A stretch of DNA of 56,610 nucleotides, counting the filler, from Sphacelaria rigidula (Eukaryota), in assembly GCA_964200075.2 (NCBI GenBank). It is 4 parts of 4 records of this genome, joined end to end, with 100 filler letters (N's around TTAATTAATTAA, not from the genome) between each part and the next. Parts side by side here need not be neighbours in the genome. Positions count along the whole stretch, not along the records: positions 14,180 to 28,257 come from CAXNAA020002469.1; 3 more parts are not named here. One strand, 5' to 3'. Every line of letters begins with the position of its first letter. Position 1 is the first letter of the stretch. Both the position numbers and the translations under genes were made by a program. Positions 12,490-56,135 of this stretch are shown here, piece by piece. The notes under the pieces are model-generated. The model was not told where the DNA came from. It saw nothing but the letters and a program-made list of their open reading frames with translations, and made no database searches.

Positions 12490-12787
12490 TCAAGGGGTAG
12501 GGGGGGGGGGGGGGGGGGGACCCATTTTTTGTTTTCCTTTGTGGTTTGCCCATTGACCCCCCCTCCCTTTTGTGACGGAGCAATGAGNNNNNNNNNNGGT
12601 AGGGGTGTGTGGGGGGGGTTGGTCGTGCTCTTCCCCTTTTCTTGCTTTCCTTAGTCGTTTGACCATTGACCACGCATCCCTTTCGAGACGGAGCATCAAG
12701 GGGTAAGGGGGGGGGCGTACTCATTTGTTGCTTGCCCTAATCATCTGACCATCGACCACGCATCCCTCTCGAGACGGAGCACGGGGG
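12490..12787 (+). repeat. Three tandem copies of the ~60-bp dispersed repeat with G-tracts
   Basis: The unit (poly-G)..TTGACCATTGACCACGCATCCCTTTCGAGACGGAGCA recurs three times; the first copy is degenerate and there is a small N gap. Confidence 0.75.
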
Positions 12788-14079: not shown

Positions 14080-14179
14080 NNNNNNNNNNNNNNNNNNNNN
14101 NNNNNNNNNNNNNNNNNNNNNNNTTAATTAATTAANNNNNNNNNNNNNNNNNNNNNNNNNNNNNNNNNNNNNNNNNNNN
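14080..14179. other. Artificial contig linker (N run, TTAATTAATTAA, N run)
   Basis: 100-nt spacer with a six-frame stop cassette; the same design occurs at all three joins. Confidence 0.97.
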
Positions 14180-16450
14180 CGACTCGACCACTGATGACGC
14201 CGTTACTGTTGCTGACGACTCGATCACAGACGACACAGTCACGGACAACTCGACCACCGACGACACGACTGCAGACGAGTCAACCGCCGACGACACGGCT
14301 ACGGACGATTCGTTTGCGGACGACTCGACCACTGACGATTCCGCCACCGACGACACTGCCACAGGTGAGCTGACCACACACGATCTCACTACATGCGTTG
14401 GTATCACGGACCATTCGACGACTGACGACTTGACAAGAGGTACCCCAGCGCTTGACGACTCAACGGTAGACAGCCCCACCGGGAACGACGGGGCCATGAG
14501 AGATTCTTGCACACACGACTCGACCACGCATTCGATCACGATCGGCTTGACCACACACGATTCAGCAAACACATTCTCGATCATCGGCAACTTGACCACG
14601 GACGACTTGATCAATGATGCGTCGCTCACGGAAATGATGATCACGAAGGATTCGACAGTGATGAGCCTACCGCAAATGTCTCGGCCGGACACCGCTCAAT
14701 ACATGTGCTGACGAATAGAGAACACATCAGTCTACCACCAACGGTTCGACCACCCTCGCCTCAGCAACATGCGAACTGATCGCCGTCGATTCGGCCACAG
14801 ACCACAGACACCGGTTTCACAGACGACTCGATTACCGACGAGACGAGCACGGACACGTCGATCACCGGCGACTCGACCATCGTTTCCTTCACTGATGACT
14901 CGTCCCCGGATGACTCGACCATAGACGACTCGCTCACGTACGACGCGCTCACGGAAGACTGGCCCGCAGACGACTCGACCTCGGATAAACCGAGGACAGA
15001 CGACTCTCTCCCTAACGACTCGGCCACTTACGACTGCACCACGGAGGGATTGCCGCCAGACGAATCTCTTTCCCTCACGACTCGACCGCCGATGACTCGA
15101 CCACCAACGGTCCGACTACTGACTCGTTCATTGACGGCTCGACCACCGGCGATTCTACTACTGACGACTCGACCAACGTCGACTCGACCACTGATGACGC
15201 CGTTACTGTTGCTGACGACTCGATCACAGACGACACAGTCACGGACAACTCGACCACCGACGACACGACTGCAGACGAGTCAACCGCCGACGACACGGCT
15301 ACGGACCAGTCGCTCACGGACGACTCGACCACTGACGATTCCGCCACCGACGACACTGCCACAGGTGAGCTGACCACACACGATCTCACTACATGCGTTG
15401 GTATCACGGACCATTCGACGACTGACAAGTCGACAAGAGGTACCCCAGCGCCTGACGACTCAACGACAGACAGCCCCACCGGGAACGACGCGGCCATGGG
15501 AGATTCTTGCACACACGACTAGACCATCCATGTGATCACGATCGGCTTGACCACACACGATTCAGCGAACACATTCTCGATCATCGGCAACTTGACCACG
15601 GACGACTTGATCAATGATGCGTCGCTCACGGAGATGATGATCACGAAGGATTCGACAGTGATGAGCTGACCGCAGATGTCTCGGCCGGACACCGCTCAAT
15701 ATATGTGCTGACGAATAGAGAACACATCAGTCTACCACCAACGGTTCGACCATCCTCGCCTCAGCAACATGCGAACTGATCGCCGTCGATTCGGCCACAA
15801 ACCACAGACACCGGTTTCACAGACGACTCGATTACCGACGAGACGAGCACGGACACGTCGATCACCGGCGACTCGACCATCGATTCCTTCACTGATGACT
15901 CGTCCCAGGATGACTCGACCATAGACGACTCGCTCACGTACGACGCGCTCACGGAAGACTGGCCCGCAGACGACTCGACCTCGGATGAACCGAGGACAAA
16001 CGACTCTCTCCCTAACGACTCGGCCACTTACGACTGCACCACGGAGGGATTGCCGCCAGACGAATCTCTTTCCCTCACGACTCGACCGCCGATGACTCGA
16101 CCACCAACGGTCCGATTACTGACTCGTTCATTGACGGCTCGACCACCTGCGATTCTACTACTGACGACTCGACCAACGACGACGCGACCACTGATGACAT
16201 CGCTACTGTTACTGACGACTCGATGACAGACGACACAGCCACGGACAACTCGACCACCGACGACACGACTACAGACGAGACAACCACCGACGACACGGCT
16301 ACGGACGATTCGTTTGCGGACGACTCGACCACTGACGATTCCGCCACCGACGACACTGCCACAGGTGAGCTGATCACACACGATCTCACTACATGCGTTG
16401 GTATCACGGACCATTCGACGACTGACAGTTTGATCATGCATGACGTGTCG
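14180..16450 (+). repeat. Tandem array with exact 1000-bp period (about 2.3 units)
   Basis: Landmarks recur at +1000 (14275/15275/16275; 14364/15364/16364; ORF track 14761/15761). Built from degenerate GACGACTCGACCACT 15-mers. Confidence 0.95.
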
Positions 16451-19400
16451 CCACGTCGCAACGGCACACACCCTTACCGCGAACGAGTCAACTGCCGGGC
16501 ACTCGTGCACTGATGACATGACCATCAAGTTGATAGCGAATGACGCCACCGCAGAGTATCTAGCGGAGATGTAGTCCCTCACAGACGCCGTGATAACGGA
16601 CGACTTGCTCACTCGCTCACAGAGATCTCAGTCACGGACGAGCCAACCGTGAACGTAGCGACTGAAAATAATTCGGCTGCAGACGAGTCGACCACGGACG
16701 ACTCGTTTATCGACTACTCGACCACTGATGACTCGTCCAAGGACGTCTCACCGGCGACTCGATAACTAACGACTTGACCAATGATGACTCGTCCAATGAC
16801 GGCTCGTCAACGGCCGACACACCCACGGATAACTCGACCACTGTAGATTCGGGTGCAGACGACTCCACTTTCGACGACACCATCACAAACGACTCCATCA
16901 CTGACGACTCCACCACTGACGACTCCATCACTGACGACTCCATCACTGACGACTCCACCACTGACGAGTCTGTCACGGATGACACCACCACTGATGACTC
17001 CGCTACAGGTGAGTTGGTAACAGACGACCTCACGAAGAATGTCCTCGTCACGGATCATACACCACCTCACGGAACATATATGACGTTTCGCTACGACTCA
17101 ATGACAGACAGATTGACGGCGAATGACTCGACCACCGCCGACTCCTTCACTGACGAGTCGGCCACCGAGTGGACGGCGGATGACCCCACCACAAATGATG
17201 TGGCCAAAGTATAATCGAATACAGACGACTCCATCACGAATGACCGGATGAGTCGCTCACGGGAATCATGATCATAAGCGAGTCAACCATGAATAAAACG
17301 ACCAAAGAGCATTCCGCCGCAGACGCCTCGATCACAGACAACTGGACCGGTGATTTCCAGTTCAATGACGACTCGACCTCGGACGACTCGACCTCGGACG
17401 ACTCGACTTCGGACGACTCAACCACTGACGACTTTCCACTGACGACTAGATCAACGACGAAACGATCACTCACGGCTTGTTTACGGACGATTCGACCGTG
17501 GACAACTTGTTTAATGACCACTCATCTACCGACGACTTGGTCACTGACGGCTCGACCACTGACGGCTCGACCACTGACGACTCAACGGTAGACAGCCAAA
17601 CCGCGAACGACTCGACGACCGGAAGCTCGTTTACTGACGCATCGACCCTCGGAGACTCCTCCACGGACAAATCGACCACCGAGTTGACAACCATAAACTC
17701 CATCACAGATGGTTCAGAAGACGTACTCCACCACAAACGACGTTACTACAAACGACCTGATCAATCCCTCACTGACGGATCCCTTGATCACGGACGAATC
17801 ATCCGTGAACGAGGCGAACAAAGACAATCCGGACGAAGCCTAGTCGACAACGAACGACTCTACCTATGACTACTCGTTTACTGACGACTCGATAGCCGAC
17901 GGCTCGACCACTGACGACTCGACCACTGACTCTTCGACCACTTACGGCTTATTAACTGACAATCCCACTACTGATAACTCGTTCAATGACGACTCAATCT
18001 CCGACGACTGAACTGCTGACGATGCCACCACTGATGACTCGTTCATTGGCGGCTTGACGACGGACGACCCACTCACTGTGACTCGACCACTGCAGACTCG
18101 ACCGCAGACGACTCCACAACCGACGACTTGATCACGGACTACCCCACCACTGACGACTCCACCACTCATAACTCCACCACTCATAACTCCACCACTGATA
18201 CCTCCACCACCGATGACTCCACCATCACACCACTGATGGCTCCACCACTGACGACTCCACCACTGATGACTCCATCACCGATGACTCCACCACTGATGAC
18301 TTCATCACTGACGACTCCAAAACCGACGACTCGACGGATGACGACCCGTTTACAGACGACTCGATCGCCGACGACTCGATCACTGACGACTCGTCGACTG
18401 ACAGTTCAACATCTGACGGCTCGTTGACTGACAACTCCACCACTGACGACTCGTTCAATGACAACTGATTCACCGACGACTGGACCACTGACGATACCAC
18501 CACCGTTGATTCGTTCGCTGGCGTCTCGACGATGGACGACCCACTTGACGTAACTCGACCACTGCGGACTCGACCGCAGACGACCCCACGACCTACGACT
18601 CGATCACTGACGACTCCACCACCGATGACTCCACCACCGACGACTCCACCACAGGTGAGTTGGTGACAGACGACCTCACCATAGATGCCTTCGTCATGGA
18701 CCATCCAACGACTCACGACTCAACCAAGTATCATTCCGCTACGACTCAAGGGCAGACGGTCTGACTAACCGCGAGCGACTCGACTCCCGGACGACTCATC
18801 GACCCCGTTAGACAACTCCACTGCCCAGGCCACCACAAAGTTGACAACCAGGATCTCCACCATATACTACTTCATCACACACGACGGTACTACAAACGAC
18901 CTGATCACTTGCTCACAGCACTCTTGATCACGGGTAAGACAGCCGTGAAGGCGGCGACCAAAGACAATTTGAACATATACGGGTCGACAACAGACGACTC
19001 GACCGATGACGACTCGTTTACTGACGACTCGATCGCCGAGGACTCGACCACTGACGGTTTGTTGACTGACAATTCAACCTCTGACGGCTCGTTGACCATC
19101 AACTGCACCATTGACAACTCGTTCAATGACAACTGATTCACCGACGTCGGGACCACTGACGATGCCACCACTGTTAATTCGTTCGCTGCCGACTCGACGA
19201 TACACGACCCACTCACCGTGACTCGACCACTGCGGACTCGACCGCAGACGACTCCACGACCGACGACTCGATCACTGACGACTCCACCACTGACGACTCG
19301 ATCACTGACGACTCCACCACTGACGACTCCACAACTGACGACTTTACCACTGACGACTCCACGACAGGTGAGTTGGTGACAGACGAACTTACTATAGATG

Positions 19401-22400
19401 CCTTCGTCATCGACCATCCAACAACTCACGACTCAACCAGGCACGTTCCGCTACGACTCAAGGGCAGACGGTCTGACTAACCGCGAGCGACTCGACTGCC
19501 GGACGCTCGCTCACTGACGCATCGACCCTGTCGGACACCTCCACTGACCAGGCTACCGCCAAGTTCACAACCAGAATCTCCACCATATACTACTTCATCA
19601 CACACGACGGTACTACAAACGACCTGATCACTTGCTCACAGCACTCTTGATCACCGGCGAGACAGCCGTGAAGGCGACGACCAGAGACAGTTTGAACAGA
19701 TACGGGTCGACCACCGACGACTCGACCGATGATGACTCGTTTACAGACGACTCGATAGCCGACGACTCGACCACTGACGGTTCGTCGACTGACAGTTCAA
19801 CATCTGACGGCTCGTTGACTGACAACTCCACCACTGACGACTTGTTCAATGACAACTGATTCACCGCCGACTGGAGCACTGACGATGCCACCACTGTTGA
19901 TTTGTTCGCTGGCGTCTCGACGATGGACGACCCACTTGACGTGACTCGACCACTGCGGACCCGACCGCAGACGACCCCACGACCGACGACTCGATCACTG
20001 ACGACTCCACCACTGACGACTCCACCACCGATGACTCCACCACTGACGACTTCACGACAGGTGAGTTGGTGACAGACGACCTTACCATAGATGCCTTCGT
20101 CATGGGCCATCCAATAACTCACGACTCAACCAGACATGACGTCCCGCTACGACTCAAGGGCAGACGGTCTGACTAACCGCAAGCTACTTGACTACCGGGC
20201 GCTCGTTTATCGACCCATCGACCCCGTTAGACTCCTCCACTGCCCAGGCGACCACAAAGTTGACAACCAGAATCTCCACCATATACTACGTCATCACACA
20301 CGGCGGTACTACATGCGACCTGATCACTTGCTCACAGCACTCTTGATCACGGGTAAGACAGCCGTGAAGGCGGCGACCAAAGATAGTTCGAACCGATACG
20401 AGTCGACAACCGTCGACTCGACCGATGACGACTCGTTTACAGACGACTCGATCGCCGACGACTCGATCACTGACGGTTCGTCGACTAACAGTTCAACCTC
20501 TGACGGCTCGTCGACTGACAACTCCACCATTGACAACCCGTTCAATGACAACTGATTCGCCGACGACTGGACCACTGACGATGCCACCACTGTTGACTCG
20601 TTCGCTGCCGACTCGACGATACACGACCCACTCACCGTGACTCGACCACTGCGAACTCGACCGCAGACGACTCCACGACCGATGACTCGATCACTGACGA
20701 CTCCACCACTGACGACTCGATCACTGACGACTCCACCACTGATGACTCCACCACCGACGACTCTACCACTGACGACTCCACGACGGGTGAGTTGATGACA
20801 GACGACCTTACCATAGATGCCTTCGTCATGGACCATCCAACAACTCACGACTCGACCAGGCATGACATTCTGCTCAGCCTCAAGGGCAGACGGTCTGACT
20901 ATCCATGAGCGACTCGACTACCGGACGCTCGTTCACCGACGCGTCGACCCCGTTAGACACCTCCACTGACCAGGCTACCGCCAAGTTCACAACCAGGATC
21001 TCCACCATATACTACTTCATCACACACGACGGTACTACAAACGACCTGATCACTTGCTCACAGCACACTTGATCACGGACGAGACAGCCGTGAAGGCGGC
21101 GACCAAAGACAGTTTGGACAGATACGGGTCGACCACCGACGACTCGACCGATGACGACTCGTTTACTGACGACTCGATCGTCGAGGACTCGACCACTGAT
21201 GGTTTGTTGACTGACAGCTGCTCCACTGACGGCTTGTTGACTGTCAACTGCACTACTAAGGACTCGTCCACTTACGACTCATTTACCGCCGACTGAACCA
21301 CTGACGATGCCACCACTGTTGATTCGTTCGCTGGCGACTCGACGATGGATGACCTATTCATCGTGACTCGACCACTGTGGACTCGACCGCAGACGACTCC
21401 ACGACCGACGACTCGATCACTGACGACTCCACCACTTACGACTCCACCACTGACGACTCCACCACTGACGACTCCATCACTGACGACGCCACGACAGGTG
21501 AGTTAGTGACAGACGACCTCACCATAGATGCCTCCGTCAGGGACCATCCAACAACTCACGACTAGACCGGGCATGACGTTCCGCTACGACTCAAGGGCAG
21601 ACGGTCTGACTACTCGCGAGCGACTCGACTACCGGACGCTCGTTCACTGACGCATCGACGCCGGTAGACACCTCCACTGACGAAGCCACCACGAAGTTGA
21701 CAACCAGAAACTCCACCATATACTACTTCATCACACACGACGGTACTTCAAACGACACGCTCACAGCACTCTTGATCACGGACGAGACAGCCGTGAAGGC
21801 GGCGTCTAAAGACAGTTTGAACAGAGACAAGTCGACCACTGACGACTCGACTGATGAGGACCCGTTTACAGACGACTCGATAGCCGACGACTCGACCACT
21901 GACGGTTCGTCGACTGACAGCTCAACATCTGACGGCTCGTTGACTGACAACTCCACCACTGATGACTCGTCTAATGACAACTGATTCACCGCCGACTGGA
22001 CCACTGACGATGCCACCACTGTTGATTCGTTCGCTGGCGTCTCGATGATGGACGACCCACTTGACGTAACTCGACCACTGCGGACTCGACCGCAGACGAC
22101 CCCACGACCGACGACTCGATCACTGACGACTCGACCACTGACGACTCCACCACCGATGACTCCACCACTGACGACTCCACCACAGGTGAGTTGGTGACAG
22201 ACGACCTCACCATAGATGCCTTCGTCATGGGCCATCCAACAACTCACGACTCAACCAGGCATGTCGTCCCGCTACGATCAAAAGTCAAACGGTCTAACTA
22301 CTCGCGAGCGACTCGACTACCGGAAGCTTGTTCACCGACGCATCGACCTCGTTAGACACCTCCACTGACCAGGCCACCACAAAGTTGACAACCAGGATCT

Positions 22401-25400
22401 CCACCATATACTACGTCATCACACACGGCGGTACTACATGCGACCTGATCACTTGCTCACAGCACTCTTGATCACGGGTAAGACAGCCGTGAAGGCGGCG
22501 ACCAAAGACAGTTTGAACAGAAACAGGTCGACAACCGTCGACTCGACCGATGACGACTCGACCGATGACGACCCGTTTACAGACGACTCGATCGCCGACG
22601 ACTCGACCACTGACGTTTCGTCTACTAACAGTTCAACCTCTGACGGCTCGTTGACTGACAACTGCACCATTGACAACCCGTTCAATGACAACTGATTCGC
22701 CGACGACTGGACCACTGACGATGCCATCACTGTTGATTCGTTCGCTGACGACTCGACGATGGACGACCCACTCACCGTGACTCGACCACTGCGGACTCGT
22801 CCGCAGACGACTCCACGACCGACGACTCGATCACTGACGACTCGACCACTGACGACTCGATCACTGACGACTCCACCACTGACGACTTTATCACCGACGA
22901 CTCCACCACTGACGCCGCGTCGACGGGTAAGTTGGTGACAGACGACCTTACCATAGATGCCTTCGTCATGGACCATCCAACAACTCACGACTCGACCAGG
23001 CATGACATTCTGCTCAGACCCAAGGGCAGACGGTCTGACTATCCACGAGCGACTCGACTGCCGGACGCTCGTTCACCGACCCCTCGACCCCGTTAGACAC
23101 CTCCACTGACCAGGCTACCGTCAAGTTCACAACCAGAATCTCCACCATATACTACTTCATCACACACGACGGTACTACAAACGACCTGATCACTTGCTCA
23201 CAGCACTCTTGATCACGGACGAGACAGCCGTGAGGGCGGCGATTAAAGACAGTTTGGACAGATACGGGTCGACCACCGACGACTCGACCGATGACGACTC
23301 GTTTACTGACGACTCGATCGTCGAGGACTCGACCACTGACGGTTTGTTGACTAACAGCTGCTTCACTGACGGCTCGTTGACTGTAAACCGCTCTACTAAG
23401 GACTCGTCCAATGACGACTCATTTACCGCCGACTGGACCACTGACGATGCCACCACTGTTGATTCGTTCGCTGGCGACTCGACGATGGATGACCTATTCA
23501 TCGTGACTCGACCACTGTGGACTCGACCGCAGACGACTCCACAACCGACGACTCGATCACTGACGACTCCACCACTAACGACTCCACCACTGACGACTCC
23601 ACCACTGACGACTCCATCACTGACGACGCCACGACAGGTGAGTTGGTGACAGACGACCTCACCATAGATGCCTCCGTCAGGAACCATCCAACAACTCACG
23701 ATTCGACCGGGCATGACGTTCCGCTACGACTCAAGGGCAGACGGTCTGACTACTCGCGAGCGACTCGACTACCGGACGCTCGTTCATCGACCCATCGACC
23801 CCGTTAGACACCTCCACTGCCCACGCGACCACAAAGTTGACAACCAGAATATTCACCATATACTACTTCATCACACACGACGGTACTACAAGCGACCTGT
23901 TTACTCGCTCACAGCTACTCTTGATCACGGACGAGACAGCCGTGAAGGCGGCGACCAAAGACAATATGAACAGAAACAGGTCGACCACCGACGACTCGAC
24001 TGATCACGACCCGTTTACAGACGACTCGATAGCCGACGACTCGACCACTATTGGTTCGTCTACTGACAGTTCAACATCTGACGTCTCATAGACTGACACC
24101 TGCACCACTGACGACTCGTCTAATGACAACTCATATGACGAGGACCGGAACACTGATGATGCCACCACTGTTGATTCGTTCGCTGGCGTCTCGACGATGG
24201 ACGACCCACTCACCGTGACCCGACCACTGCGAACTCGACCGCAGACGACTCCACGACCGACGACTCGATCACTGACGACTCCACCACTGACGACTCCACC
24301 ACTGACGACTCCACCATCGATGACACCACCACCGACAACTCCACCACAGGTGAGTTGGTGACAGACGACCTCACCATAGATACCTTCGTCAGGGACCATC
24401 CAACAACTCACGACTCAACCAGGCATGTCGTCCCGCTACGACCAAAGGTCAAACGGTCTAACTACTCGCGAACGACTCGACCACCGGACGCTCGTTCACC
24501 GACGCATCGACCCCGTTAGACACCTCCACTGACCAGGCGACCACAAAGTTGACAACCAGAATCTCCACCATATACTACTCCATCACACACGACAGTACTA
24601 CAAGCGACCTGATCACTTGCTTACAGCACTCTTGATCACGGACGAGACAGCCGTCAAGGCGGCGACCAAAGACAATATGAACAGAAACAGGTCGATCACC
24701 GACGACTCGACCATTGACGACTCGTTCACTGACGACCCGATCGCCGACGACTCGACCACTGACAGTTTGTTGACTGACAATTCAACCACTGACGGCTCGG
24801 TGACTGACAACTTTACCACTGACGACTAGTTCAATGACAACTGATTCATTGCCGACTGGACCACTGGCGACGCCACCACTGTTGATTCGTTCGCTGGCGT
24901 CTCGACGATGGACGACCCACTTAACGTAACTCGACCACTGTGGACTCGACCGCAGACGACTCCACGACCGACGACTCGATCACTGACGACTCGATCACTG
25001 ACGACTCGACCACTGGCGACTCAACCACTGATGACTTCACCACTGACGACTCCACCACAGGTGAGTGGGTGACAGACGACCTCACCATAGATGCCTTCGT
25101 CAGGGACCATCCAACAACTCACGACTCAACCAGGCATGTCGTCCCGCTACGAACGAAGGTCAAACGGTCTGACTACTCGCGAACGACTCGACTACCGGAC
25201 GCTCGTTCACCGACGCATCGACCGCGTTAGACTCCTCCACTGACCAGGCGACCACAAAGTTGACAACCAGAATCTCCACCATTTACTACTCCATCACACA
25301 CGACCGTACTACAAGCGACCTGATCACTTGCTCACAGCACTCTTGATCACGGACGAGACAGCCGTGAAAGCGGCGACCAAAGACAATATGAACAGAAACA

Positions 25401-27934
25401 GGTCGACCACCGACGACTCGACCGATGACGACCCGTTTACTGACGACCCGATCGCCGACAACTCGACCACTGACAGTTTGTTGACTGACAATTCAACCAC
25501 TGACGGCTCGTTGACTGACAACTCCACCACTGACGACTTGTTCAATGACAACTGATTCATTGCCGACTGGACCACTGGCGACGCCACCACTGTTGATTCG
25601 TTCGCTGGCGTCTCGACGATGGACGACCCACGTAACGTAACTCGATCACTGTGGACTCCACGACCGACGACTCGAACACTGACGACTCGATCACTGACGA
25701 CTTCACCGCTGACGACTCGATCACTGACGACTCCACCACTGACGACTCCACCACTGATGACTCCACCATTGACGACTCCACCACAGGTGAGTTGGTGACA
25801 GACGACCTCACCATAGATGCCTTCGTCAGGGACCATCCAACAACTCACGACTCAACCAGGCATGTCGTCCCGCCACGACTAAAGGTCAAACGGTCTGACT
25901 AATCGCGAGTGACTCGACTACCGGACGCTCGTTCACCGACGCATCGACCCCGTTAGACACCTCCACTGACTAGGCCACCACAAAGTTGACAACCAGGATC
26001 TCCACCATATACTACTTCATCACACACGGCGGTACTACAAGCGACCTGATCACTTGCTCACAGCACTCTTGATCACGGACGAGACAGCCGTGAAGGCGGC
26101 GACCAAAGACAGTTTGAACAGACACAGGTCGACAACGGACGACTCGACCAATGACGACATGCTTACAGACGACTCGATCGCCGACGACTCGGCCACTGAC
26201 GGTTTGTTGACCGACAATTCAACCACTGACGGCTCGGTAACTGACAACTGCACCATTAACAACTCGTCCAATGACGACTCATTGACCGCCGACTGAACCA
26301 CTGACGATGCCACCACTGTTGATTCGTTCGCTGGCGACTCGACGGTGCGCGACCCACTCACCGTGACTCGACCACTGCGGACTCGATCGCAGACGACTCC
26401 ACGACCTACGACTCGATCACTGACGACTCGATCACTGACGACTCCACCACTGACGACTCTACCACCGACGACTCCACCACCGATGATTCCACCACTGACG
26501 ACTCCACCGCAGGTGAGTTGGTGACAGACGACCTCACCATAGATGCCTTCGTCATCGACCATCCAACAACTCACGACTCAACCACGCATGGCGTTCCGCT
26601 ACGACTCAAAGAGAGATGGTCTCACTAATCGCGAGAGACTCGACTACCGGAAGCTCGTCCACCGACGCATCGACCCCGTTACACACCTCTACTGATCAGG
26701 CCACCGCCAAGTTGACAACCAGAATCTCCACCATATACTACTTCATCACACACGACGGTACTACAAGACACCTGATCACTTGCTCACAGCACTCTTGATC
26801 ACCGGCGAGACAGCCGTGAAGGCGACGACCAGAGACAGTTTGGACAGATACGGGTCGACCACCGACGACTCGACCGATGACGACTCGTTTACAGACGACT
26901 CGATAGCCGACGACTCGACCACTGACGGCTCGTCAACTGACAGTTCAACATCTGACGGCTCGTTGACTGACAACTGCACCACTGACGACTCGTTCAATGA
27001 CAACTGATTCACCGCCGACTGGAGCACTGACGATGCCACCACTGTTGATTCGTTCGCTGGCGACTCGACGATGTACGACCCACTTGACGTAACTCGACCA
27101 CTGCGGACTCGACCGCAGACGACTCCACGACCGACGACTCGATCACTGACGACTCCACCACTGACGACTCCACCACCGACGACTCTACCACTGACGACTC
27201 TTCGACGGGTAAGTTGGTGACAGACGACCTTACCATAGATGCCTTCGTCATGGACCATCCAACGACTCACGACTCGACCAGGCATGACATTCTGCTCAGA
27301 CTCAAGGGCAGACGGTCTGACTATCCGCGAGCGACTCGACTACCTGACGCTCGTTCACTGACGCATCGACCCCGTCAGACACCTCCACTGACCAGGCTAC
27401 CGCCAAGTTCTCAACCAGAATCTCCACCATATACTACTTCATCACACACGACGGTACTACAAGCGACCTGATCACTTGCTCACAGCACTCTTGATCACGG
27501 ACGAGACAGCCGTGAAGGCGGCGACCAAAGACAGTTTGAACAGAAACAGGTCGACAACAGAAGACTCGACCGATGACGACAAGCTTACAGACGACTCGAT
27601 CGCCGACGACTCGGCCACTGACGGTTTGTTGACCGAAAATTCAACCTCTGACGGCTCGGTAACTGACAACTGCACCATTGACAACTCGTCAAATGACGAC
27701 TCATTTACCGCCGACTGAACCACTGACGATGCCACCACTGTTGATTCGTTCGCTGGCGACTCGACGGTGTGCGACCCACTCACCGTGACTCGACCACTGC
27801 GGACTCGATCGCAGACGACTACACGACCTACGACTCCATCACTGACGACTCCATCACTGACGACTCCATCACTGACGACTCTACCACCGACGACTCCACC
27901 ACCGATGATTCCACCACTGACGACTCGACCACAG
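14275..27934 (+). CDS. Putative array of 17 phase-1/phase-1 exons encoding an acidic Asp/Ser/Thr (DDSTT)n protein segment; start and stop not in the contig
   Basis: Candidate exons: 14275-14364, 15275-15364, 16275-16364, 16859-17008, 18580-18654, 19248-19367, 19971-20060, 20667-20786, 21393-21497, 22096-22185, 22807-22926, 23533-23637, 24245-24349, 24956-25060, 26393-26512, 27119-27208, 27815-27934. Each follows CAG, ends at GT[G/A]AG and is stop-free in the DDSTT frame. No transcript evidence. Confidence 0.45.
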
Positions 27935-28257
27935 GTGAGTTGGTGACAGACGACCGCACCATAGATGCCTTCGTCATCGACCATCCAACAACTCACGACT
28001 CAACCACGCATGACGTTCCGCTACGACTCAAAGACAGATGGTCTAACTAATCGCGAGAGACTCGACTACCGGACGCTCGTTCACCCTCCCATCCACCCCG
28101 TTAGACACCTCCACTCACGAGGCGACCACAAAGTTGACAACCAGAATCTCCACCATATACTACTTCATCACACACGACGGTACTACAAGACACCTGATCA
28201 CTTGCTCACAGCACTCTTGATCACGGACGAGACAGCCGTGAAGGCGACGACCAGAGA
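17700..28257 (+). repeat. Tandem array of about 14 units of 688-741 bp built on a 15-mer
   Basis: The AC(A/G)GGT(G/A)AGT landmark lies at 18654, 19367, 20060, 20786, 21497, 22185, 22926, 23637, 24349, 25060, 25786, 26512, 27208 and 27934. Confidence 0.96.
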
Positions 28258-28357
28258 NNNNNNNNNNNNNNNNNNNNNNNNNNNNNNNNNNNNNNNNNNN
28301 NTTAATTAATTAANNNNNNNNNNNNNNNNNNNNNNNNNNNNNNNNNNNNNNNNNNNN
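28258..28357. other. Artificial contig linker
   Basis: Same 100-nt N/TTAATTAATTAA/N spacer. Confidence 0.97.
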
Positions 28358-30519: not shown

Positions 30520-30730
30520 TGTAATGCGTGAGAGGACCGCGTGCTTAGAGGACCGCATCGGAATTTGAACATTCCTATGGTTAGGGTTAGGGTTAGGGTT
30601 AGGGTTAGGGTTATGGTCAGGGGTGTGGTGCCTGCAGGGACTGGCCCGATTGGTTTTGAAAAACATCGATCCTGCGGTGTTTTGAACTACGGCGCGGTCC
30701 TCTAAGCACGCGGTCCTCTCACGCATTATA
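30520..30730 (+). mobile_element. TTAGGG-bearing MITE, copy 1
   Basis: TIR TGTAATGCGTGAGAGGACCGCGTGCTTAGAGGACCGC; internal perfect (TTAGGG)5 at 30581-30610. Confidence 0.92.
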
Positions 30731-31368: not shown

Positions 31369-31580
31369 TGTAATGCGTGAGAAGACCGCGTGCTTAGAGG
31401 ACCGCATCGGCATTTGGACATCCCTATGGTTGGGGTTAGGGTCAGGGTTAGTGTCAGGGTTAGTGTCAGGGCCGTGGTACCTCCAGGGACTGACTTAATT
31501 GGTGTTGAGAAACGTCGATTCTGAGGTATTTTTTAACTACGGCGCGGTCCTCCAAGCACGCGGTCCTCTCACGCATTACA
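31369..31580 (+). mobile_element. TTAGGG-bearing MITE, copy 2
   Basis: Same TIRs; perfect 4-bp TSD CGTG. Confidence 0.92.
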
Positions 31581-38166: not shown

Positions 38167-38378
38167 TGTAATGCGTGAGAGCACCGCGTGCTTACAGGAC
38201 CGCGCCGTAGTTCAAAACACCTAAGGATTGATGTTTTTCAAAACCAATCGGGCCAGTCCCCGCAGGTACCACACACCCCTGACCATAACCCCAACACTAA
38301 CCCTACCCTAACCCTAACCATGGGGATGTTCAAATTCCGATGCGGTCCTCTAATCACGCGGTCCTCTCACGCATTACA
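38167..38378 (-). mobile_element. TTAGGG-bearing MITE, copy 8
   Basis: Full TIRs and a CCCTAA tract. Confidence 0.9.
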
Positions 38379-39098: not shown

Positions 39099-39301
39099 TG
39101 TAATGCGTGAGAGGACCGCGTGCTTGGAGGACCGCGCCGTACTCCAAAACACCCCAGGATCGACGTTTTTCATACCCACTCGGGCCAGTCCCTGCTGGAA
39201 CCACGCCCCTGACCCCAACCCCAACCCCAACACTAACCCTAACCCCAACCGTAGGGATGTTCAAATTCAGATGTAAGCACGGGATCCTCTCACGCATTAC
39301 A
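39099..39301 (-). mobile_element. TTAGGG-bearing MITE, copy 10
   Basis: TGT..ACA termini; perfect TSD CTAC; internal deletion in the right TIR. Confidence 0.9.
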
Positions 39302-42434: not shown

Positions 42435-42534
42435 NNNNNNNNNNNNNNNNNNNNNNNNNNNNNNNNNNNNNNNNNNNNTTAATTAATTAANNNNNNNNNN
42501 NNNNNNNNNNNNNNNNNNNNNNNNNNNNNNNNNN
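42435..42534. other. Artificial contig linker
   Basis: Same 100-nt N/TTAATTAATTAA/N spacer. Confidence 0.97.
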
Positions 42535-45525: not shown

Positions 45526-46270
45526 CTCCCTCTGGCCGGGAATATAAGGCCGATAAGCACAAAAAGCTGTCTATCTTGGGCCCATGATACTCTTTTTCAG
45601 AACGGTTTTTTTTATTGGTTTTTCCGACCCGACACGGAGCGGCCAGAACCGGTGTTTTTCAAAAACTTTGACAAAACACGTTGCCCTACCCCAGCAGAAA
45701 TCTCTCGAAATCACCACCCCAACTTTGAACACCTGGTCAAAAGCCTTCCCATCTTCTGGTGAGGTAGTATGTCCGTTGCTGGGAGCGACTCCCAGGTGCC
45801 ACAACGCAAGAGTCTCAACGGTTTTGAAAAATCTGCGGTGATTCGGTACCTCCTCGCCGGCAGCAAGGACGGGGTTCTGAAGCGAGGTGCGTACAAGGCA
45901 GCAGCGGAGGAGTTTGGCTGCGGATGGAAGTCGATCAGCAGGCTGTGGAAGAAGTACGATCAGCAGCATAAAGCAGGCGTCGCGCACCGGGGTGCACATT
46001 CAGCTTCCGCACTTCGTTTCTCTCGTGGCCGGGTGCATTTAAGCTGGATTTTCCACGATTTTCACCTATTCGGGGATACTCATCAACCATCCCCCCCCTA
46101 TCGAGCGGATACACTTTTTTTGTATCCAACTTGATACTCGATCATACACCAAACTTATCCGACGTCCCACGTGACTGAATTGCCCGATATGGAGGATACA
46201 GGGCATATCGGACATATCGGCCTTATATTCCGGATATCCTTATCGGCCTTATATTCCCGGCCAGAGGGAG
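45526..46270 (+). mobile_element. Internally deleted mariner-like element (CTCCCTC termini, Stowaway/DD39D type)
   Basis: Perfect 32-bp TIR CTCCCTCTGGCCGGGAATATAAGGCCGATAAG, TA TSD, and an extra sub-terminal TIR motif near 46216. Confidence 0.92.
45769..46134 (+). pseudogene. Truncated mariner transposase ORF (N-terminal helix-turn-helix only)
   Basis: RKSLNGFEKSAVIRYLLAGSKDGVLKRGAYKAAAEEFGCGWKSISRLWKKY resembles the N-terminus of DD39D-type transposases; no DDD catalytic domain follows. Confidence 0.8.
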
Positions 46271-48347: not shown

Positions 48348-48614
48348 CTAAGGAGAGCGGTGGTGCTCAGCTGTTATTTCACGCTTCCACGGGAAACGGT
48401 GAAGCCTTGCCGGCTCCCAATTGTACACAAATTCCGGATTCCCCATGCCTTGATTCGCCGCGCGAGATGGTTGTTCTTGGTCATGTTCTCCCGAAGTGCG
48501 CCATTCCACGTCGTCCTGTCTCTCACGTCTCCTGGCGACGAATTCGGAATCGCCCTGGAGGGTGGCACAGCGCAACACTCTTGCAGCATCGTACTCCGTC
48601 AAAGCCTCTTCCAC
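48348..48614 (-). CDS. FAD-dependent monooxygenase terminal exon
   Basis: ccgcag| VEEALTEYDAARVLRCATLQGDS...NPEFVYNWEP...stop. Continues the family's AL-x-x-Y-x-x-x-R helix in phase 0 after a 4.8-kb intron. Confidence 0.8.
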   Translation of the reverse strand: MEEALTEYDAARVLRCATLQGDSEFVARRRERQDDVEWRTSGEHDQEQPSRAANQGMGNPEFVYNWEPARLHRFPWKREITAEHHRSP

Positions 48615-49174
48615 CTGCGGCAGTAATTTGGGATAATGAAGGGGGCAAACCCACAAGTAGACTCCGTCAGGATGCTGGAGCGACATGGGCTACAGCCGGG
48701 CACCATGCTGGATACACAGGTACGTAGGACGCAGCGGCGATTTGGTAGCTCCACCCCGTGGTATCGCCTGGCACGTTCTAGTGCGACAAGTTCTAGCCAG
48801 AATGTACCCGTGTGCACGGTCCTAAACGCAACGAGGAACACCAGGGGGCTGGGGACGTGCCCAATTAGGGGCGTCTACGAATACCCTACAAATACCCTAC
48901 TCTAAACAACATACAACATTCGCACGATATCATTTCAAGGTCGAAACAGTTCAAGGGGACCTCTGCTACATGTATCGATCAGAATGGTACGTGGTGCCGA
49001 ATACTGTAACGTCATCATTCTTACAATACTAGTGGTGAGCCACGGCTGACGCGCGTGGCAGCAGTGCCGCAGGTCTCAACGCCACGGGTCTCGCATGCGT
49101 GGAGGCTTTGAACAAAATGATTAAACAAAAGGTGATCCATCATCAATCATAATTTACTAGTATAAGGGGCTTCA

Positions 49175-49282
49175 TTAACCCTTAGACGGCGAGAGTAGGC
49201 CATCTATTGAATCGGCGGCCATCTCACTCGAAACAAAATATGCATGATCCTCATGGACTACCCTGGGCGGTCTAAGGATTGA
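49175..49282 (+). mobile_element. Diverged piggyBac-like mini-MITE
   Basis: TTAACCCTTAGAC..GATCC..ATGGACTACC..GCGGTCTAAGG; homologous to 33024-33125. Confidence 0.7.
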
Positions 49283-50280
49283 CAGGCTTTATTTTTCATG
49301 TTTTTCGTCCATTTTCATCCATGAAAATGGCAAAGTAAAACCCGGTAACAACGGCCCAATCAGCAAATTTGCTGCTCCTGATCACGGGCTGGATTGTTGC
49401 AATCAGCTAAGGTGAGATAATCAATCAATCAATCAAGCAGGTAAGGACTTCGAACCGCACGGCTAAACGTCAGCATCACGAAAGAAAAAGGGAACCCTAA
49501 CTATATTGGTGCCAACCCGGCAGCGCTGCATTCATAGAGAATCTGCCCCGAAGAAGCAAGCAGCAAACCGAGTAGAAAAACGCCCCGTCATTCGTCTAGT
49601 TCCCACAGGGTGTACAACAACGAAGCCCAAGAGCATCGATTCCTAGCTAGTTGATCCTCGTCGGCCGTAGTGAGGTGTCGGCCGCCTGTATCGCATGGGC
49701 AACACGCTGGCTGTATGCATCTACTCGATAGCGAGGGTATTCGTCAAGAGCCATGATGACTTGTTCCTGGCGCGTGTCGGCGTCGTACCCGTTGGCGTTG
49801 AGGGTGTTGGCTGGGTTGACATCATGCTCTTCAAACGCCTGGCGGTAGCTTTTTGCGATGTTTTGAAACCCGCTGGCCTGTCGTAACCATCAAAGTCCGG
49901 ACAGACCCCTTTTTCACGGTTATATGTGCATGTAGCCGACACCACACGCCCTTGCAAGGTCATGGTAATATGTATGATGAGCGACCCATGTCATCAGGCC
50001 CCACCTATCCCCATTCTGATATATCCTCAGTGTTTTTTTGTCTTTGGCCATTCATGTCAAGGTAACTCCGTATCAGATAATATATCTTCTCTCCACCGCA
50101 CATTCATTGTATTTTATATTGTATCGCGTCTGTGTGAGTTTCACGGGCCCGATCATATATATATATGTACTTTTTTTTCCTCATTCCTTTATTTGCGTAG
50201 TTTATCTGACCACGGACCGCGTCCCCATCAAATGCCCGGTAGACATTACTGCGCAGATGTCGGAGCGGTTCTCACGTGAA

Positions 50281-50282
50281 AA

Positions 50283-50331
<49 letters not shown>
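50281..50331 (+). repeat. (AACGAC)n microsatellite
   Basis: About seven perfect AACGAC units. Confidence 0.95.
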
Positions 50332-50499
50332 AGCCTTACGTCTGCGAAGACGCGCCCTCAGACGGGGTCTGTGATTTTCACTTTTTGAATACGTGGGCAC
50401 TTTTGAAAATTGATTGCCCCAACAACGACCAGTATTCAGTTTTTTCGGAAAGCAGTTTTATCCCGATTAGGGTTGTACGCCAAATTTTTACCGTATAAG

Positions 50500-50938
50500 G
50501 CCACTTCTTATTTTTTCAGAAAACGGGCTGTCTGAAAACTGCCCTTTTTGAGCCTTTCGTCACGGATTTTCGGCGAAATACAGGCCTTGGCGGATTGGGC
50601 CTCCTCTGACAGACTTGCCATGCTTTCCAAGAGGATTCTAGCGCATTTTCCCGATTTTTCGTCGCACAGATTTACGTTTGGCCAGATGCCCGATTTTTGG
50701 GGCGATTTTTGGTGCGACTGAAAAAATCGGGAATCCGGCCAACCGTGAAATGGGCGACGAAAAATCGGGAATGTGCACTAGAATGCTTTTGGCTAGCATA
50801 GCAAATCTGTCAGAGGAGGCCCAATCCGCCAAGGCCCATTTTCTACCAAGGCCCGTAATCCGCCAAAAATCCGTGATGAAAGGCTCAAGAAGAGCAGTTC
50901 TCAGAAAATCCCATTTTCTGACTTGAAGAAGCGCCCAC
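50500..50938. mobile_element. Foldback MITE (intronic)
   Basis: TTGAGCCTTTC.TCACGGATTTT..GGCCTTGGCGGATTGGGCCTCCTCTGACAGA / TCTGTCAGAGGAGGCCCAATCCGCCAAGGCC..AAAATCCGTGA.GAAAGGCTCAA. Confidence 0.82.
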
Positions 50939-51303
50939 GGGTTGTTTTTTTATTCAAATTTTATTTGATTATTAAAATCGAATGATTCATAAAAACAGTT
51001 TGCTGTTGATTGTCAATTTACCCACACGTTCCGCCGCTGCGAGACAGACAGCTGCGACCATGAACTGCCAATCGCTGAGGATACAGCCGTCAGTGCTGGC
51101 TCAGTATGTTTGCCCCAACCTGCACGCACCCGGCTTGTCTGTCTTACTGCACTCGATCACAGCACCCGACTCCTTGGCCTTTTGACGGCAAGAGTAGGTC
51201 ATCTGTTGACATGGCATCAATTTCTACCCAAAACTCATGTGCATGATCCGATGGACCACACACGCGTTCTAAACGTTTGACTGGCCCATAAAACACTCAG
51301 AAG

Positions 51304-51508
51304 TTAGCCCTTCGACCGCGGCGCGGGTCGTTCATCTGGACCACGTATACTTTTTTTAATGAAATTGATGCCGATCCAGCAGGTGACCTACCCTCGCGGT
51401 TTAACCCGTTGACCGCGAGGGTAGGTCACCTGCTGGATCGGCATCAATATCATTAAAAAAAGTATGCGTGATCCGGATGGACTACCCGCACCGCGGTCTA
51501 AGGGTCAA
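51304..51508. mobile_element. Head-to-head pair of piggyBac-like mini-MITEs
   Basis: GATGCCGATCCAGCAGGTGACCTACCCTCGCGGT / ACCGCGAGGGTAGGTCACCTGCTGGATCGGCATC around a central TTAA; an older copy lies at ~51178-51280. Confidence 0.8.
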
Positions 51509-53441
51509 GGGTCAAGTGCCAAAGGAGACACAACGGACAGCTGCATAGCCATCACATGATTTTTTCAACTGCATATAGACAACACTTTCTAGTCCGCCCA
51601 CTCCACTGTACAGACCGGTACACGACAGCAGTACAGCTGCTGAGGCACTCTCCAGCGCAGCTCCAACTACGCTTGACGAGGGCTCAAACGTTCAACAGCA
51701 CAGCGACAACTCAACTAGACATTAAAATGATGGGTGTGGGCAACGCCTTGTTCGTTTGACGGAAGATGAGACGGCCAACACACCATGAAGTTTTCAGCAG
51801 TGTGTAGAGAGAACTGCGTGCCTACTAACATCATCATTTTCTACAGCGACGAACACAACAGTGCGGTGGTAGCTCAGGTAGTCCCAGCGGAGACCAAATC
51901 GTCTCGGTAAGGTCTGAACACACCAAAGTTCAGTGACAGCTCAACAGCATGTGAGCGGGCGTGAGCGTGTTTGTGCTGAAGCACCAGCTCACACATGCGA
52001 ACACGGGTCATCACGAGCTAGCGGCAAAAACAGCAGCAGCAACGTAGCACGAAGACCGCCAGTGAACGTGTCGCACACGCTTGTGGGTTGCCAACACGTC
52101 CGCACAGCATTGTTCCCAATACACCGTCATGGTACAGTGCGGCACACACAACGGTGGTACCCGTACAGAGGTGATCGTCCGCAGATGTATTGACTTCACA
52201 GTGTTCGAAAGTATATACTCGTGTGCATGTGTCACGTAACCCCAAAGCCTGTGAACCCTTCGACATATGGGAGAAGACGGGGTTGCATGAAGATGGCATG
52301 CTAGCTGCATCTATTTGGGTGCTGTTTTTTTTAGCAAGCAGCTGTTCATTTACCCTTGTATCTTCCGACCCCGACACGGAGAGCAATCAGCGGTTTGCTG
52401 CTTCCACAATAGCGACGGTGTGTCCGCTACCAAACTGACTGTACAAACAGATAGTAGAGGTACTGTAAACACTCTCCTCCTTCAGTGCTATCGCCGTACT
52501 ACGGTACCAGTCAGCATCCAATCCCGCAAGGGAGCTATTACTCTATACGTACTGTGGTTCTACTGTTGTATAGTACATATAAAACCGTCTGCCGTTCACG
52601 TGGGTGCTTGAACTCTCCGAAAAAACACGCACAGATACGGAAGTTACGTTGCATTTCCATGCTAGTCTGTGCGCATTGTCGGTACCCCTACTACAATGTA
52701 CACACAGCAGCCTTCGTTTGACGGAGAGTCGTTTGGAGTGGTGTTGGATGAGGGCCAGCCGTGTTTTGTTTTGTTTTATGGCGCAACAAAATTTGCTCAA
52801 GATGGAGTCATAGACCGTCTTATCTACATGGATGGGTGCATATTTTTGTTCCGGAGATGGTGGGTATTACACAAAGTGCATAGCGTAACAGATCTACAAG
52901 AGTGTATAGAGCTCAACATTCCACCATACCGGTACACACAGTGCAATTGGATAGATAGGTGAGGCCGGAGAGCGCACATCGCACAGCATTTTGGCAGCGC
53001 ACGTACCTCAGACCAGCCGTTATTGGCCGATGGGTGTGCAGGGTAGGTGGCGGTGGTGGTTCGTGGCGCTAACAAAAAACACTGGATTGCTGAGCATGGG
53101 TGCAGTGCGTCGTATCGGTAGTGTCAAGACTGAAAGGTTTTCAGATTCTGTGGGTCCACAAACAACCTGACCGTTCGTCCCAGATCATCTTTCGGGTTGT
53201 TCCTGCGGAACGATAGAGGACAGTGACAGTTTCCTCCTCTTCAGTCCGAGCGTCTAGTGTGAAACACTCTTCCGAAAAGGATCATTTTCTATTTGGGTCA
53301 AGTATGGAAAACCTGGAAACAATCGTCTTGATCACAGCATGCAGCGGCGAGACATTACGCTACTAAAAAATAGGACATCCCGGGTCCTCAACCAAAGCCT
53401 TCGTTTCTGTGTTAATACCAGTGCCAAATCGTAGTGCTTAC

Positions 53442-53609
53442 GGAGTCTGTATCGCGCAGGAGCAGGGCCAGCTGAACCGCGTCCTCGAGCGCCATGTTGG
53501 CCCCTTGACCTAACGACGGCCGTCCCGGGTGGGCCGCGTCACCGACCAGGGCGCAATAAAACTCATCGCTTCGGACGCCGGATACAAATGAACGTAACGC
53601 AGGTCGATC
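53442..53609 (-). CDS. FAD-dependent monooxygenase exon with GD motif
   Basis: atccag| DRPALRSF...ALVGDAAHPGRPSLGQGANMALEDAVQLALLLRDTDS |gtaagc; FAD_binding_3 fingerprint. Confidence 0.93.
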
Positions 53610-53952
53610 CTGGATGTGAAACATGCGGGGAATGTCGGCAAAACAGATGTCGTAGTTAGTGGGGACGGGGTTTTGGCGACTGGCGACCTGTGCGGAATCA
53701 TTGCGGTACTTACCGCCAGTAAGGCCCCCACACATGCAGCGGAACCGTTTTACTCTAAAGCAGTCATGTCACAGTCTTACGGTGTTTCAGATTCGCAGTG
53801 CCCCATACAGGGAACTTCCAGAGAGATGAACCACCTGCGCATCAGGGATTCTCCAGCAGACACGTCCATCAGCGTACATCTGCCTTTAAACTAAAAGCGC
53901 CGGCAGATGCTTACGATCAGATTTGGTGCGAAAACTGCCGTGGCCAGTTCAC

Positions 53953-54087
53953 CTCGATGCGACGCCGATGAATCTGGTTTGGAGGCGTCGCGTCGACCAG
54001 ATCTACCAGACCCGGGCACTCCTCCCCAAACTTTCTCTTCACGAACTCTCGCACCTCCTCGTGCCGGCTGCTCAGCTCCATCGCCTC
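53953..54087 (-). CDS. FAD-dependent monooxygenase exon
   Basis: ttcag| EAMELSSRHEEVREFVKRKFGEECPGLVDLVDATPPNQIHRRRIE |gtgaac; 135 nt, phase 0-0. Confidence 0.8.
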
Positions 54088-55577: not shown

Positions 55578-55765
55578 CATACGGTCGTCGCCTGTCAAAG
55601 CCACCGCCCAGTAAGTGTGGTCTCCCACCGGCATGAGAGAAGCCGCCTTGCCGGGTTCGCTCATGAAAAACGTGTGTATCCGGGATCGGAGGAGTACAGG
55701 GCATGCGACGTGCCCGACGATGCCGAACACCCACACGCACTCTGCATCCCGCGGCAAGGCAGAAT
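55578..55765 (-). CDS. FAD-dependent monooxygenase exon
   Basis: aaatag| (D)SALPRDAECVWVFGIV...SLMPVGDHTYWAVALTGDDRM |gtaaga. Phase 1 to 0, matching both neighbours. Confidence 0.82.
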
Positions 55766-56135
55766 CTATTTTTCAGGAGCCCGAGCGTGGGGTGGTAAAA
55801 ATCACCCCGGAAGTAGGAGCGGGTAGGACGAGGGGGGCGGGAGAAAGGGTGGAGGGGAACTCGACAATGTAGATATCAAACGGGAATATTTAATAGAAAA
55901 CCCAGCGATTACGGCAGCGGTATAAAGAGGTGAAATCCTGGCAGATGATGACTCTTGTTGTGCAAAAAGATCCCTGTATTCAACTTCACGTGACACCATG
56001 GCCGCTCCGTCTCTCAATTGCATCACAGAAGCGTTTTCTCTAGACCACACACCCATATACAGTTCACGCCATGATGATCACCCGAGACACACTGCATTGC
56101 ACTGCAAGCACGCCCTTGTGTTGCACCATATATAC

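Follow-up and report, generated by a model that had tools for sequence, protein, structure and literature searches.

Tandem DDSTT-repeat units in the brown alga Sphacelaria rigidula: a candidate split gene amplified as exon–intron cassettes

The array and its candidate exons

The stretch of DNA considered here, hereafter the window, comprises 56,610 bases from the brown alga Sphacelaria rigidula, made up of four contigs (14,079, 14,078, 14,077 and 14,076 bases) with artificial spacers of the form N44-TTAATTAATTAA-N44 between them. Our subject is a tandem array that fills the whole of the second contig, from 14180 to 28257 (14,078 bp), and is built from a 15-nucleotide (nt) repeat that spells the pentapeptide DDSTT on the plus strand. 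It has no genomic flanks, both ends of the contig lying within the array, and the other three contigs in the window are not its genomic neighbors, the four being placed together by their order in a length-sorted list. An earlier reading of this contig, the original prediction, had taken it for a possible tandem gene in which every unit supplies one short (DDSTT)n exon and an intron made of the same repeat.

The base composition of the plus strand is C 0.34, A 0.27, G 0.21 and T 0.18. Periodicity of 15 nt extends through most of the contig, as seen in many rows of period 15, 30 or 45 from Tandem Repeats Finder (TRF) and in a lag-15 identity of 0.51; as in a satellite, this shorter period is nested in longer tandem units, on the combined evidence of TRF, autocorrelation and an alignment of the units. 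These longer units fall into two families, of about 1000 bp and about 711 bp, separated by an irregular middle (16580-18654). Members of the ~711-bp family differ pairwise by 4-15%, and their lengths differ mostly by multiples of 15. The features of the array, all on the plus strand, are as follows (a slash marks a candidate splice site).

14180-28257: stand-alone contig, a tandem array from a 15-nt (DDSTT) repeat with both ends within the array (TRF, autocorrelation, composition)
14180-16580: 1000-bp family, 2.4 units, lag-1000 identity 0.889
14275-14364: candidate exon 1, 90 nt, TGCAG/AC...CAG/GTGAGC
15275-15364: candidate exon 2, 90 nt
16275-16364: candidate exon 3, 90 nt, acceptor TACAG
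16859-17008: candidate exon 4, 150 nt, in the irregular middle
18107-18226: orphan pure tract after a CGCAG acceptor (18103-18107), with no donor and then a register shift
18580-18654: candidate exon 5, 75 nt
18655-27934: ~711-bp family, 13 units of 688-741 bp, each with a candidate intron of ~600 nt ahead of its candidate exon
19248-19367: candidate exon 6, 120 nt
19851-19859: shared in-frame stop GACAACTGA, an example in a decayed tract
19940-19943: shared register shift, an example (phase 9 to phase 10), ~25 nt before CGCAG
19971-20060: candidate exon 7, 90 nt
20667-20786: candidate exon 8, 120 nt
21393-21497: candidate exon 9, 105 nt
22096-22185: candidate exon 10, 90 nt
22807-22926: candidate exon 11, 120 nt, donor GTAAGT (22927)
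23533-23637: candidate exon 12, 105 nt
24245-24349: candidate exon 13, 105 nt
24956-25060: candidate exon 14, 105 nt
25636-25786: pure tract without acceptor, in the 711-type unit 25061-25786; CGCAG lost via a 15-nt difference, donor at 25787 kept
26393-26512: candidate exon 15, 120 nt
27119-27208: candidate exon 16, 90 nt, donor GTAAGT (27209)
27815-27934: candidate exon 17, 120 nt

Seventeen stop-free segments, each running from a YRCAG acceptor to a GTRAG donor, were found again at the coordinates implied by the original prediction. Their acceptors read TGCAG, TACAG or CGCAG, followed by AC, and their donors CAG or CGG followed by GTGAGT, GTAAGT or GTGAGC, the two GTAAGT variants standing where they had been reported. 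At the level of motifs, both sites recur at the same places in 17 of the 18 units; the exception to the one exon per unit of the original prediction is the unit at 25061-25786, which lacks the acceptor. The orphan tract at 18107-18226 is probably a cassette broken by deletion.

The candidate exons measure 75-150 nt, and all 17 are multiples of 15 in length and of phase 1-1, whereas 8 of the 16 candidate introns are not multiples of 3. Among the 13 aligned units, the length differences that are not multiples of 3 (11, 8, 2 and 1 nt) all fall within the candidate introns, and the exons of the 711-type units range from 5 to 8 15-mers. Symmetric phase and lengths divisible by 3 are features of cassette genes, but they follow from the 15-mer in any case and are no evidence, a caution already sounded in the original prediction. 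The absence of stops is likewise uninformative, since GAC, TCC, ACC and ACT cannot mutate to stops in one step, and the 17 segments all descend by copying from one or two ancestral cassettes and are not 17 independent events. Conceptually joined, they sum to 1785 nt, or 595 codons, against the roughly 590 residues foreseen; the product is 38% Asp, 33% Thr, 17% Ser and 5% Ile, has no Pro, and presents the long Ser/Thr-rich tandem repeats that characterize mucin-like proteins.

Outside these segments the repeat is decayed. The stop GACAACTGA that the original prediction described as common to the units is present in 9 of the 13 aligned ones, and the 1-nt frameshift that it placed about 25 nt upstream of a CGCAG corresponds to a register shift at that position. 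It was also right that the segments are the purest repeat tracts, with 0-3 mismatches per 15-mer versus 4-9 elsewhere. Its derivation of the whole contig from one 15-mer went too far: that origin is demonstrable for ~60% of the unit, and ~270 nt per ~711-bp unit (columns ~76-345) fit the 15-mer like shuffled sequence, with 5-8 mismatches against a shuffled mean of 7.6. Its statement that the contig has no long open reading frame (ORF) does not hold, the longest stop-free frames reaching 197 codons on the plus strand and 207 on the minus.

Coding-type variation and splice-like motifs

Variation of the coding type is confined to the pure tracts. In the alignment of the 13 units of the ~711-bp family, diversity within the candidate exons at the first, second and third DDSTT codon positions is 0.046, 0.084 and 0.181, respectively, with a ratio of non-synonymous to synonymous diversity (pN/pS) of 0.24. 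Of the column events in these exons, 25 are synonymous and 20 non-synonymous, i.e., 56% synonymous where 24% would be expected (p=6e-6). By comparison, six non-exon segments, read in their respective local pentapeptide frames, gave 94 synonymous to 234 non-synonymous events (29%), a significant difference from the exons (Fisher p=0.0005), and these flanks evolve neutrally. Hence, as regards the kind of substitution, the contrast between the inside and the outside of the candidate exons that the original prediction would entail is present, whereas total divergence, as detailed further below, is the same in both.

As copies and register shifts render the column events non-independent, variant types were also counted among the 91 exonic 15-mers: 10 of the 11 possible synonymous single-base variants are seen, as against 14 of the 34 non-synonymous ones (Fisher p=0.005), with 101 and 47 occurrences, respectively. 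The pure tract, by both position diversity and variant types, thus departs from the variation without codon phase that marks a satellite. Relative to the consensus, the exons carry 1.6 mismatches per 15-mer with a synonymous share of 0.68, and the decayed flanks 4.7-6.0 with a share of 0.41-0.42; such a weaker bias is what flanks with a coding past and an earlier release from constraint should show. In the 1-kb family, the three exons display a similar pattern, with 24, 3 and 44 mismatches at the three codon positions. The orphan tract at 18107-18226 has a synonymous fraction of 0.48 and 2.6 mismatches per 15-mer; the orphan pure tracts, with 8 and 7 15-mers, are too few to gauge a loss of constraint. 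A second exon considered in the long frame-0 ORF (PGHHK...FNDN) was rejected, its variation being neutral (14:44 and 23:57) and including 4 stop mutations.

The donor motif was set against 5000 dinucleotide shuffles of a single unit. GTRAGT arose on the plus strand of 7.9% of the shuffled units, and the full MAG/GTRAGT, anywhere in the unit, in two of the 5000 (0.04%). In the array, every pure tract has the full donor consensus exactly at its 3' edge, and the GT of this donor is kept in all 18 units, including those of the diverged 1-kb family; the 15-mer that bears it differs from the repeat consensus at 9 of its 15 positions. The match is a single observation, selected by a reader scanning many windows, yet it is not trivial. 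On the minus strand, GTRAGT is found in 89% of the shuffled units, and the contig itself has 29 donor-like hexamers on that strand versus 15 on the plus. In the 711-type family, each of the 13 acceptors provides the first AG downstream of a stretch of 92-222 nt that has none.

Copy number and the other contigs

Copy number was gauged from contig depths in run X1, taken relative to the unique middle of the array. The unique middle of the array has a depth of 61-74, pieces specific to single ~711-bp units 68-104, and shared pieces up to 636; the pieces of the 1-kb units reach 317-1103, about 5-17 times the unique middle. At face value, the number of ~711-bp units in the genome is close to that seen in the contig, and the 1-kb family extends beyond the left contig end by perhaps ten more units. 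As the unit-specific depth equals that of the unique middle, the array appears, on these contig depths, to be a low-copy locus of a few tens of kb rather than a genome-wide satellite.

Loose ends of contigs in run X2 at 22121, 23191 and 26418 were considered as borders of the array and rejected: there is a GATC at each exit, the unlike letters also start with GATC, and they look like ligation chimeras of a proximity-ligation (Hi-C type) library. Two contigs of run X1 leave the array into unlike sequence at 15091 and 24718 (255 letters each) with no GATC at the junction; these may be other loci with the 15-mer repeat or true borders of other copies. Among contigs from runs X1-X3, whose longest records of 29-283 kb look like DNA, four joints (17583 to 25060, 19857 to 20450, 21609 to 22302 and 22200 to 14622) include none that runs from donor to acceptor, and they have no bearing on expression. 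Run X3, labelled as an algae metagenome, lacks 15 nt at 15165, equal to one pentapeptide step, and the array thus varies in 15-nt steps between samples. A scan of metagenomes with a 20-nt pattern from the donor region returned 10 loci, each alike over only 23-27 nt, which amounts to chance.

In the remainder of the window the following were noted.

14080-14179, 28258-28357 and 42435-42534: the artificial spacers
12588-12597: an extra run of ten N
30579-30622, 31433-31471, 38277-38319 and 39212-39250: telomere-like short runs (GGTTAG or CCCTAA and variants) inside the third contig
45763-46131, plus strand: ORF with a weak match to DUF7769 / helix-turn-helix (26.6 bits, just under the cut-off of 27), which may be a transposase remnant
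48351-56445, minus strand: five-exon gene with a FAD_binding_3 domain, on the fourth contig; its exons match an NCBI protein labelled as Sphacelaria rigidula (P0054, 355 aa) at 99-100%, which bears out a brown algal origin

The FAD-binding gene offers a view of introns in this genome. Its four GT-AG introns measure ~370, 1490, 343 and 4827 nt (placed by extension of exact matches, with limits good to a base or two), their donors read GTATAT, GTAAGA, GTGAAC and GTAAGC, and their acceptors ATAG, TCAG, CCAG and GCAG. They have no marked pyrimidine tract, and one acceptor reads CCGCAG. By analogy, these introns would make the splice-like sites of the array plausible in this genome.

Split gene or decayed satellite, and the known systems

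We propose that the contig may be an internal, tandemly amplified part of a plus-strand split gene. Each 0.7-1.0-kb unit would be a cassette of one short phase 1-1 exon, encoding 5-10 pentapeptides (D-D-S-T/I-T), and one intron of ~0.6-0.9 kb that would be a decayed copy of the same coding repeat. Briefly, the following history could account for it. A long (DDSTT)n reading frame would have gained frameshifts and stops in some of its stretches. The damaged stretches would then have been spliced out (intronization), from a CAG/GTGAGT donor to a YRCAG/ acceptor, and left to decay neutrally, with selection for the DDSTT frame continuing to act on the tract that was retained. Finally, the exon-plus-intron cassette would have multiplied by unequal exchange, with exon length shifting 15 nt at a time by slippage. 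The frameshifts and stops of the flanks, being common to the units, predate the amplification. The encoded stretch would be acidic and disordered, probably glycosylated or cation-binding, and would belong to a secreted or wall-associated protein whose length could change by whole cassettes and by five-residue steps.

The evidence for this proposal lies in the pure tract, with its 1.6 mostly synonymous mismatches, being set between tracts that have 4.7-6.0, in-frame stops and three register shifts. In dead DNA, tracts of equal age would decay equally and a regrown tract would vary neutrally; the simplest reading is thus that the tract was translated and its neighbors were not. As there are stops on both sides of the tract, its translation would in turn need splicing close to the two motifs or exactly at them. 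The alternative would be gene conversion by an intact paralog elsewhere, but the public searches brought up no such protein. The splicing, the direction of the history and the function of the product are what we infer from the array. Weighing the whole, we regard a cassette architecture of exons and introns, current or recent, as evenly balanced between true and false, and present expression of the gene as doubtful; that this is a living gene, with introns born from its own coding minisatellite and a cassette amplified at least 18 times, is a suggestion we put forward tentatively.

A series of observations weighs against the proposal. Overall, the exons are as diverse as the introns (0.125, or 0.100 with gapped columns left out, against 0.113), the best-conserved parts of the unit (columns 1-60, 211-240 and 541-570) belong to the candidate intron, and nearest-neighbor units are not consistently closer in the exon. 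The exon pS of 0.245 is twice the neutral diversity of the introns, from which it follows that part of the synonymous signal stems from slippage or exchange reshuffling old 15-mer variants; the signal may predate the amplification. The youngest changes, alleles confined to a single unit, were seen at 13 of 940 first and second exon positions, 9 of 470 third positions and 146 of 7870 intron positions, so that private changes at exon positions 1 and 2 stand at a ratio of 0.74 to introns (26% rarer; p=0.36). With private changes this near to neutral, selection on the DDSTT frame is indicated for the time when the 15-mer variants were arising and the flanks decaying, and is not established for the present. 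As to the motifs, the acceptor is gone in one unit and the donor in one irregular unit; no polypyrimidine tract was found (pyrimidine 0.50-0.60 at -22 to -3, with a background of 0.52); and the branch-like motif, given in the original prediction as CTCAC/TTGAC, lies in a variable stretch and differs among units (CTCAC, TTGAC, TTCAT, TTAAC, GTAAC), a YTRAY being present upstream of 5 of the 16 acceptors examined. The contig has no start, end or non-repeat exon.

The database searches tell the same way. A 100-codon frame (19178-19480) had no match among public proteins of near length (1 candidate) or greater length (102 candidates). In a representative library it had 53 matches at E<=0.001, three of them at E<=1e-10; the 19 inspected were unrelated low-complexity proteins with pentapeptide repeats, none of which matched the non-repeat flank, and the 10 traced to their sources came from a clam, bacteria and metagenomes. 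The likeness to public proteins would hence appear to be one of low complexity only. Pfam searches of five plus-strand and three minus-strand frames gave nothing above cut-off (Extensin_1 at 14.8 bits against a cut-off of 105), and Rfam no match. The proteins annotated on this assembly are present in the public collection searched, and gene prediction in the Phaeoexplorer project, for which RNA-seq and transcriptomes are stated to have been produced from each strain, is described as combining RNA-seq and protein homology after transposon masking (10.1101/2024.02.19.579948). The lack of a matching annotated protein is weak evidence against a well-expressed gene, and only weak because such repeats are hard to assemble and annotate. 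The cassette-gene interpretation of the original prediction is partly borne out: the coding-type signature and the donor consensus speak for it, the equal divergence and the near-neutral private changes against it.

These same observations can be accommodated by a dead repeat ORF that turned into a low-copy satellite and was never spliced. Under such a scheme, a (DDSTT)n minisatellite that once coded lost its function and a 0.7-1-kb piece of it multiplied into a higher-order repeat, the purity of the tract comes from slippage and exchange among 15-mers, and the splice-like motifs are accidents copied with the unit. Exons and introns would then be expected to diverge equally and the youngest changes to be near neutral, as found; the spread from 5 to 8 15-mers in the 711-type units would signify active slippage, and the synonymous diversity of the tract, above the neutral level, a shuffling of old variants. 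The frequency of donor-like hexamers on the other strand (29), the want of a pyrimidine tract or a stable branch motif, and the failure to find a matching public protein all sit well with it. However, a dead tract renewed by slippage should vary neutrally, and its variant types are biased towards the synonymous (p=0.005); adjacent tracts with 1.6 and 4.7-6.0 mismatches per 15-mer cannot be explained by equal age and neutrality; chance would rarely put a full donor consensus right at the edge of the tract (2 of 5000 shuffles, anywhere in a unit); and the copy number appears low. Such a dead array is a possibility to be taken seriously, if short of probable.

Two further variants keep a gene but alter its reading. 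In one, the gene is real and its exon limits lie elsewhere, for instance with longer exons taking in codons before CGCAG (DSTTADSTA) and after GTGAG (ELVTDDLTIDAFV...), or with the acceptor of the 1-kb family far upstream, where the frame is open for ~85 codons before TGCAG. In nearly all units the DDSTT frame is open from ~23 codons before the acceptor to ~37 after the donor, a 168-codon open frame (15016-15519) spans the candidate exon of a 1-kb unit, and the synonymous share is slightly raised in both flanks (0.32 and 0.33, with 0.24-0.27 expected). Yet this excess is not significant (p=0.11 and 0.32), and since the frame runs into a stop ~37 codons past the donor and a register shift precedes the acceptor by ~9 codons, some splicing at almost identical limits would still be required; we consider this variant unlikely.

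The other variant places the gene on the minus strand, where the pure tract would read (VVESS)n or (VVSGG)n in open frames of 175-207 codons. Stop-free frames of that length recur in most units, a minus-strand GTGAGT adjoins the tract in some of them, and the column signal is mirrored over the pure tract in the frame VVESS (20:18, expected share 0.29), a further point that tells against the plus-strand proposal. The mirroring arises because VVESS and DDSTT share their third positions. Changes at the two GAY codons are exclusively C>T (11 cases, no transversion), whereas at the four-fold sites all changes are common; this restriction fits the plus-strand DDSTT frame and not VVESS, in which one GAY site would be four-fold. 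The long 175-codon minus frame, moreover, reads VVSGG over the pure tract and shows no synonymous excess there (8:30), only 6 of the 13 units retain the donor-like motif of that strand, long open frames are expected on an A-poor strand, and the three minus-strand frames tested had no Pfam match. We therefore rejected a minus-strand gene, which appears very improbable.

The wider import depends on whether the candidate junctions are used. If so, the array would document the intronization of coding repeat DNA with the parent repeat still recognizable in the intron, and a spread of introns by cassette amplification, as proposed for silk genes. It would add to ROCO and NB-ARC-TPR a second brown-algal gene class built for exon-number variation, and would yield a candidate acidic Ser/Thr-rich cell-surface protein, possibly binding cations or interacting with polysaccharides of the wall. 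As a living gene, it would be among the rare loci whose sequence still discloses how an entire set of spliceosomal introns arose. If the junctions are unused, the array would illustrate clearly how a coding minisatellite decays into a satellite of higher order, and would caution against taking copied splice-like motifs and 3n lengths in repeats as proof of anything.

Among known systems, a higher-order-repeat satellite resembles the array in its head-to-tail units made from a shorter period, its length steps of that short period and its drift of 4-15%; the array differs in its apparently low copy number by depth, its strong strand asymmetry and its one codon-phased tract per unit. On the side of the product, runs of (D/E)(D/E)STT in the unrelated proteins P0015, P0037, P0004 and P0003 share its composition and five-residue period, and some such proteins carry an N-terminal signal-like or lipoprotein-like start. 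Unlike homologs, they come from scattered sources (clam, bacteria, metagenomes) and resemble it in the repeat only, which points to convergence rather than homology. A mucin-like acidic Ser-Thr domain is typically encoded by one long exon.

The spider silk genes furnish a parallel for the amplification. The original report on the spider Flag gene is said to have described repetitive exons separated by near-identical introns. In Flag and in Argiope MaSp2, as proposed for the array, exon and intron have been propagated together within a gene for a repetitive protein (PMC3522626). The silk introns within a gene are almost identical to one another; the array units differ by 4-15%. The silk exons are much longer, expression of the silk genes is proven, and their introns are not described as derived from the coding repeat (PMC3522626).

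The closest known system is that of the Ectocarpus ROCO genes, whose pertinence the original prediction had correctly recognized. In these, each leucine-rich repeat (LRR), of type I, is encoded by one 72-nt exon, and non-coding LRR-like copies lie within the introns (Zambounis et al. 2012, PMC3341825). The ROCO LRR exons and the TPR exons of the NB-ARC-TPR genes share with the array a brown algal setting, one short module per exon, and symmetric exons of lengths divisible by 3 that allow cassettes to be gained or lost (PMC3341825). They differ in that the ROCO module is a folded LRR of 24 residues, with support from expressed sequence tags and in genes with known domains (PMC3341825), whereas that of the array is a low-complexity pentapeptide run of variable length, known here from sequence alone. 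If the proposed reading is true, two things would be new in the array: its exon module would be a low-complexity run rather than a folded repeat, and its whole introns, not just inserts within them, would be recognizably decayed copies of the repeat that their exons encode.

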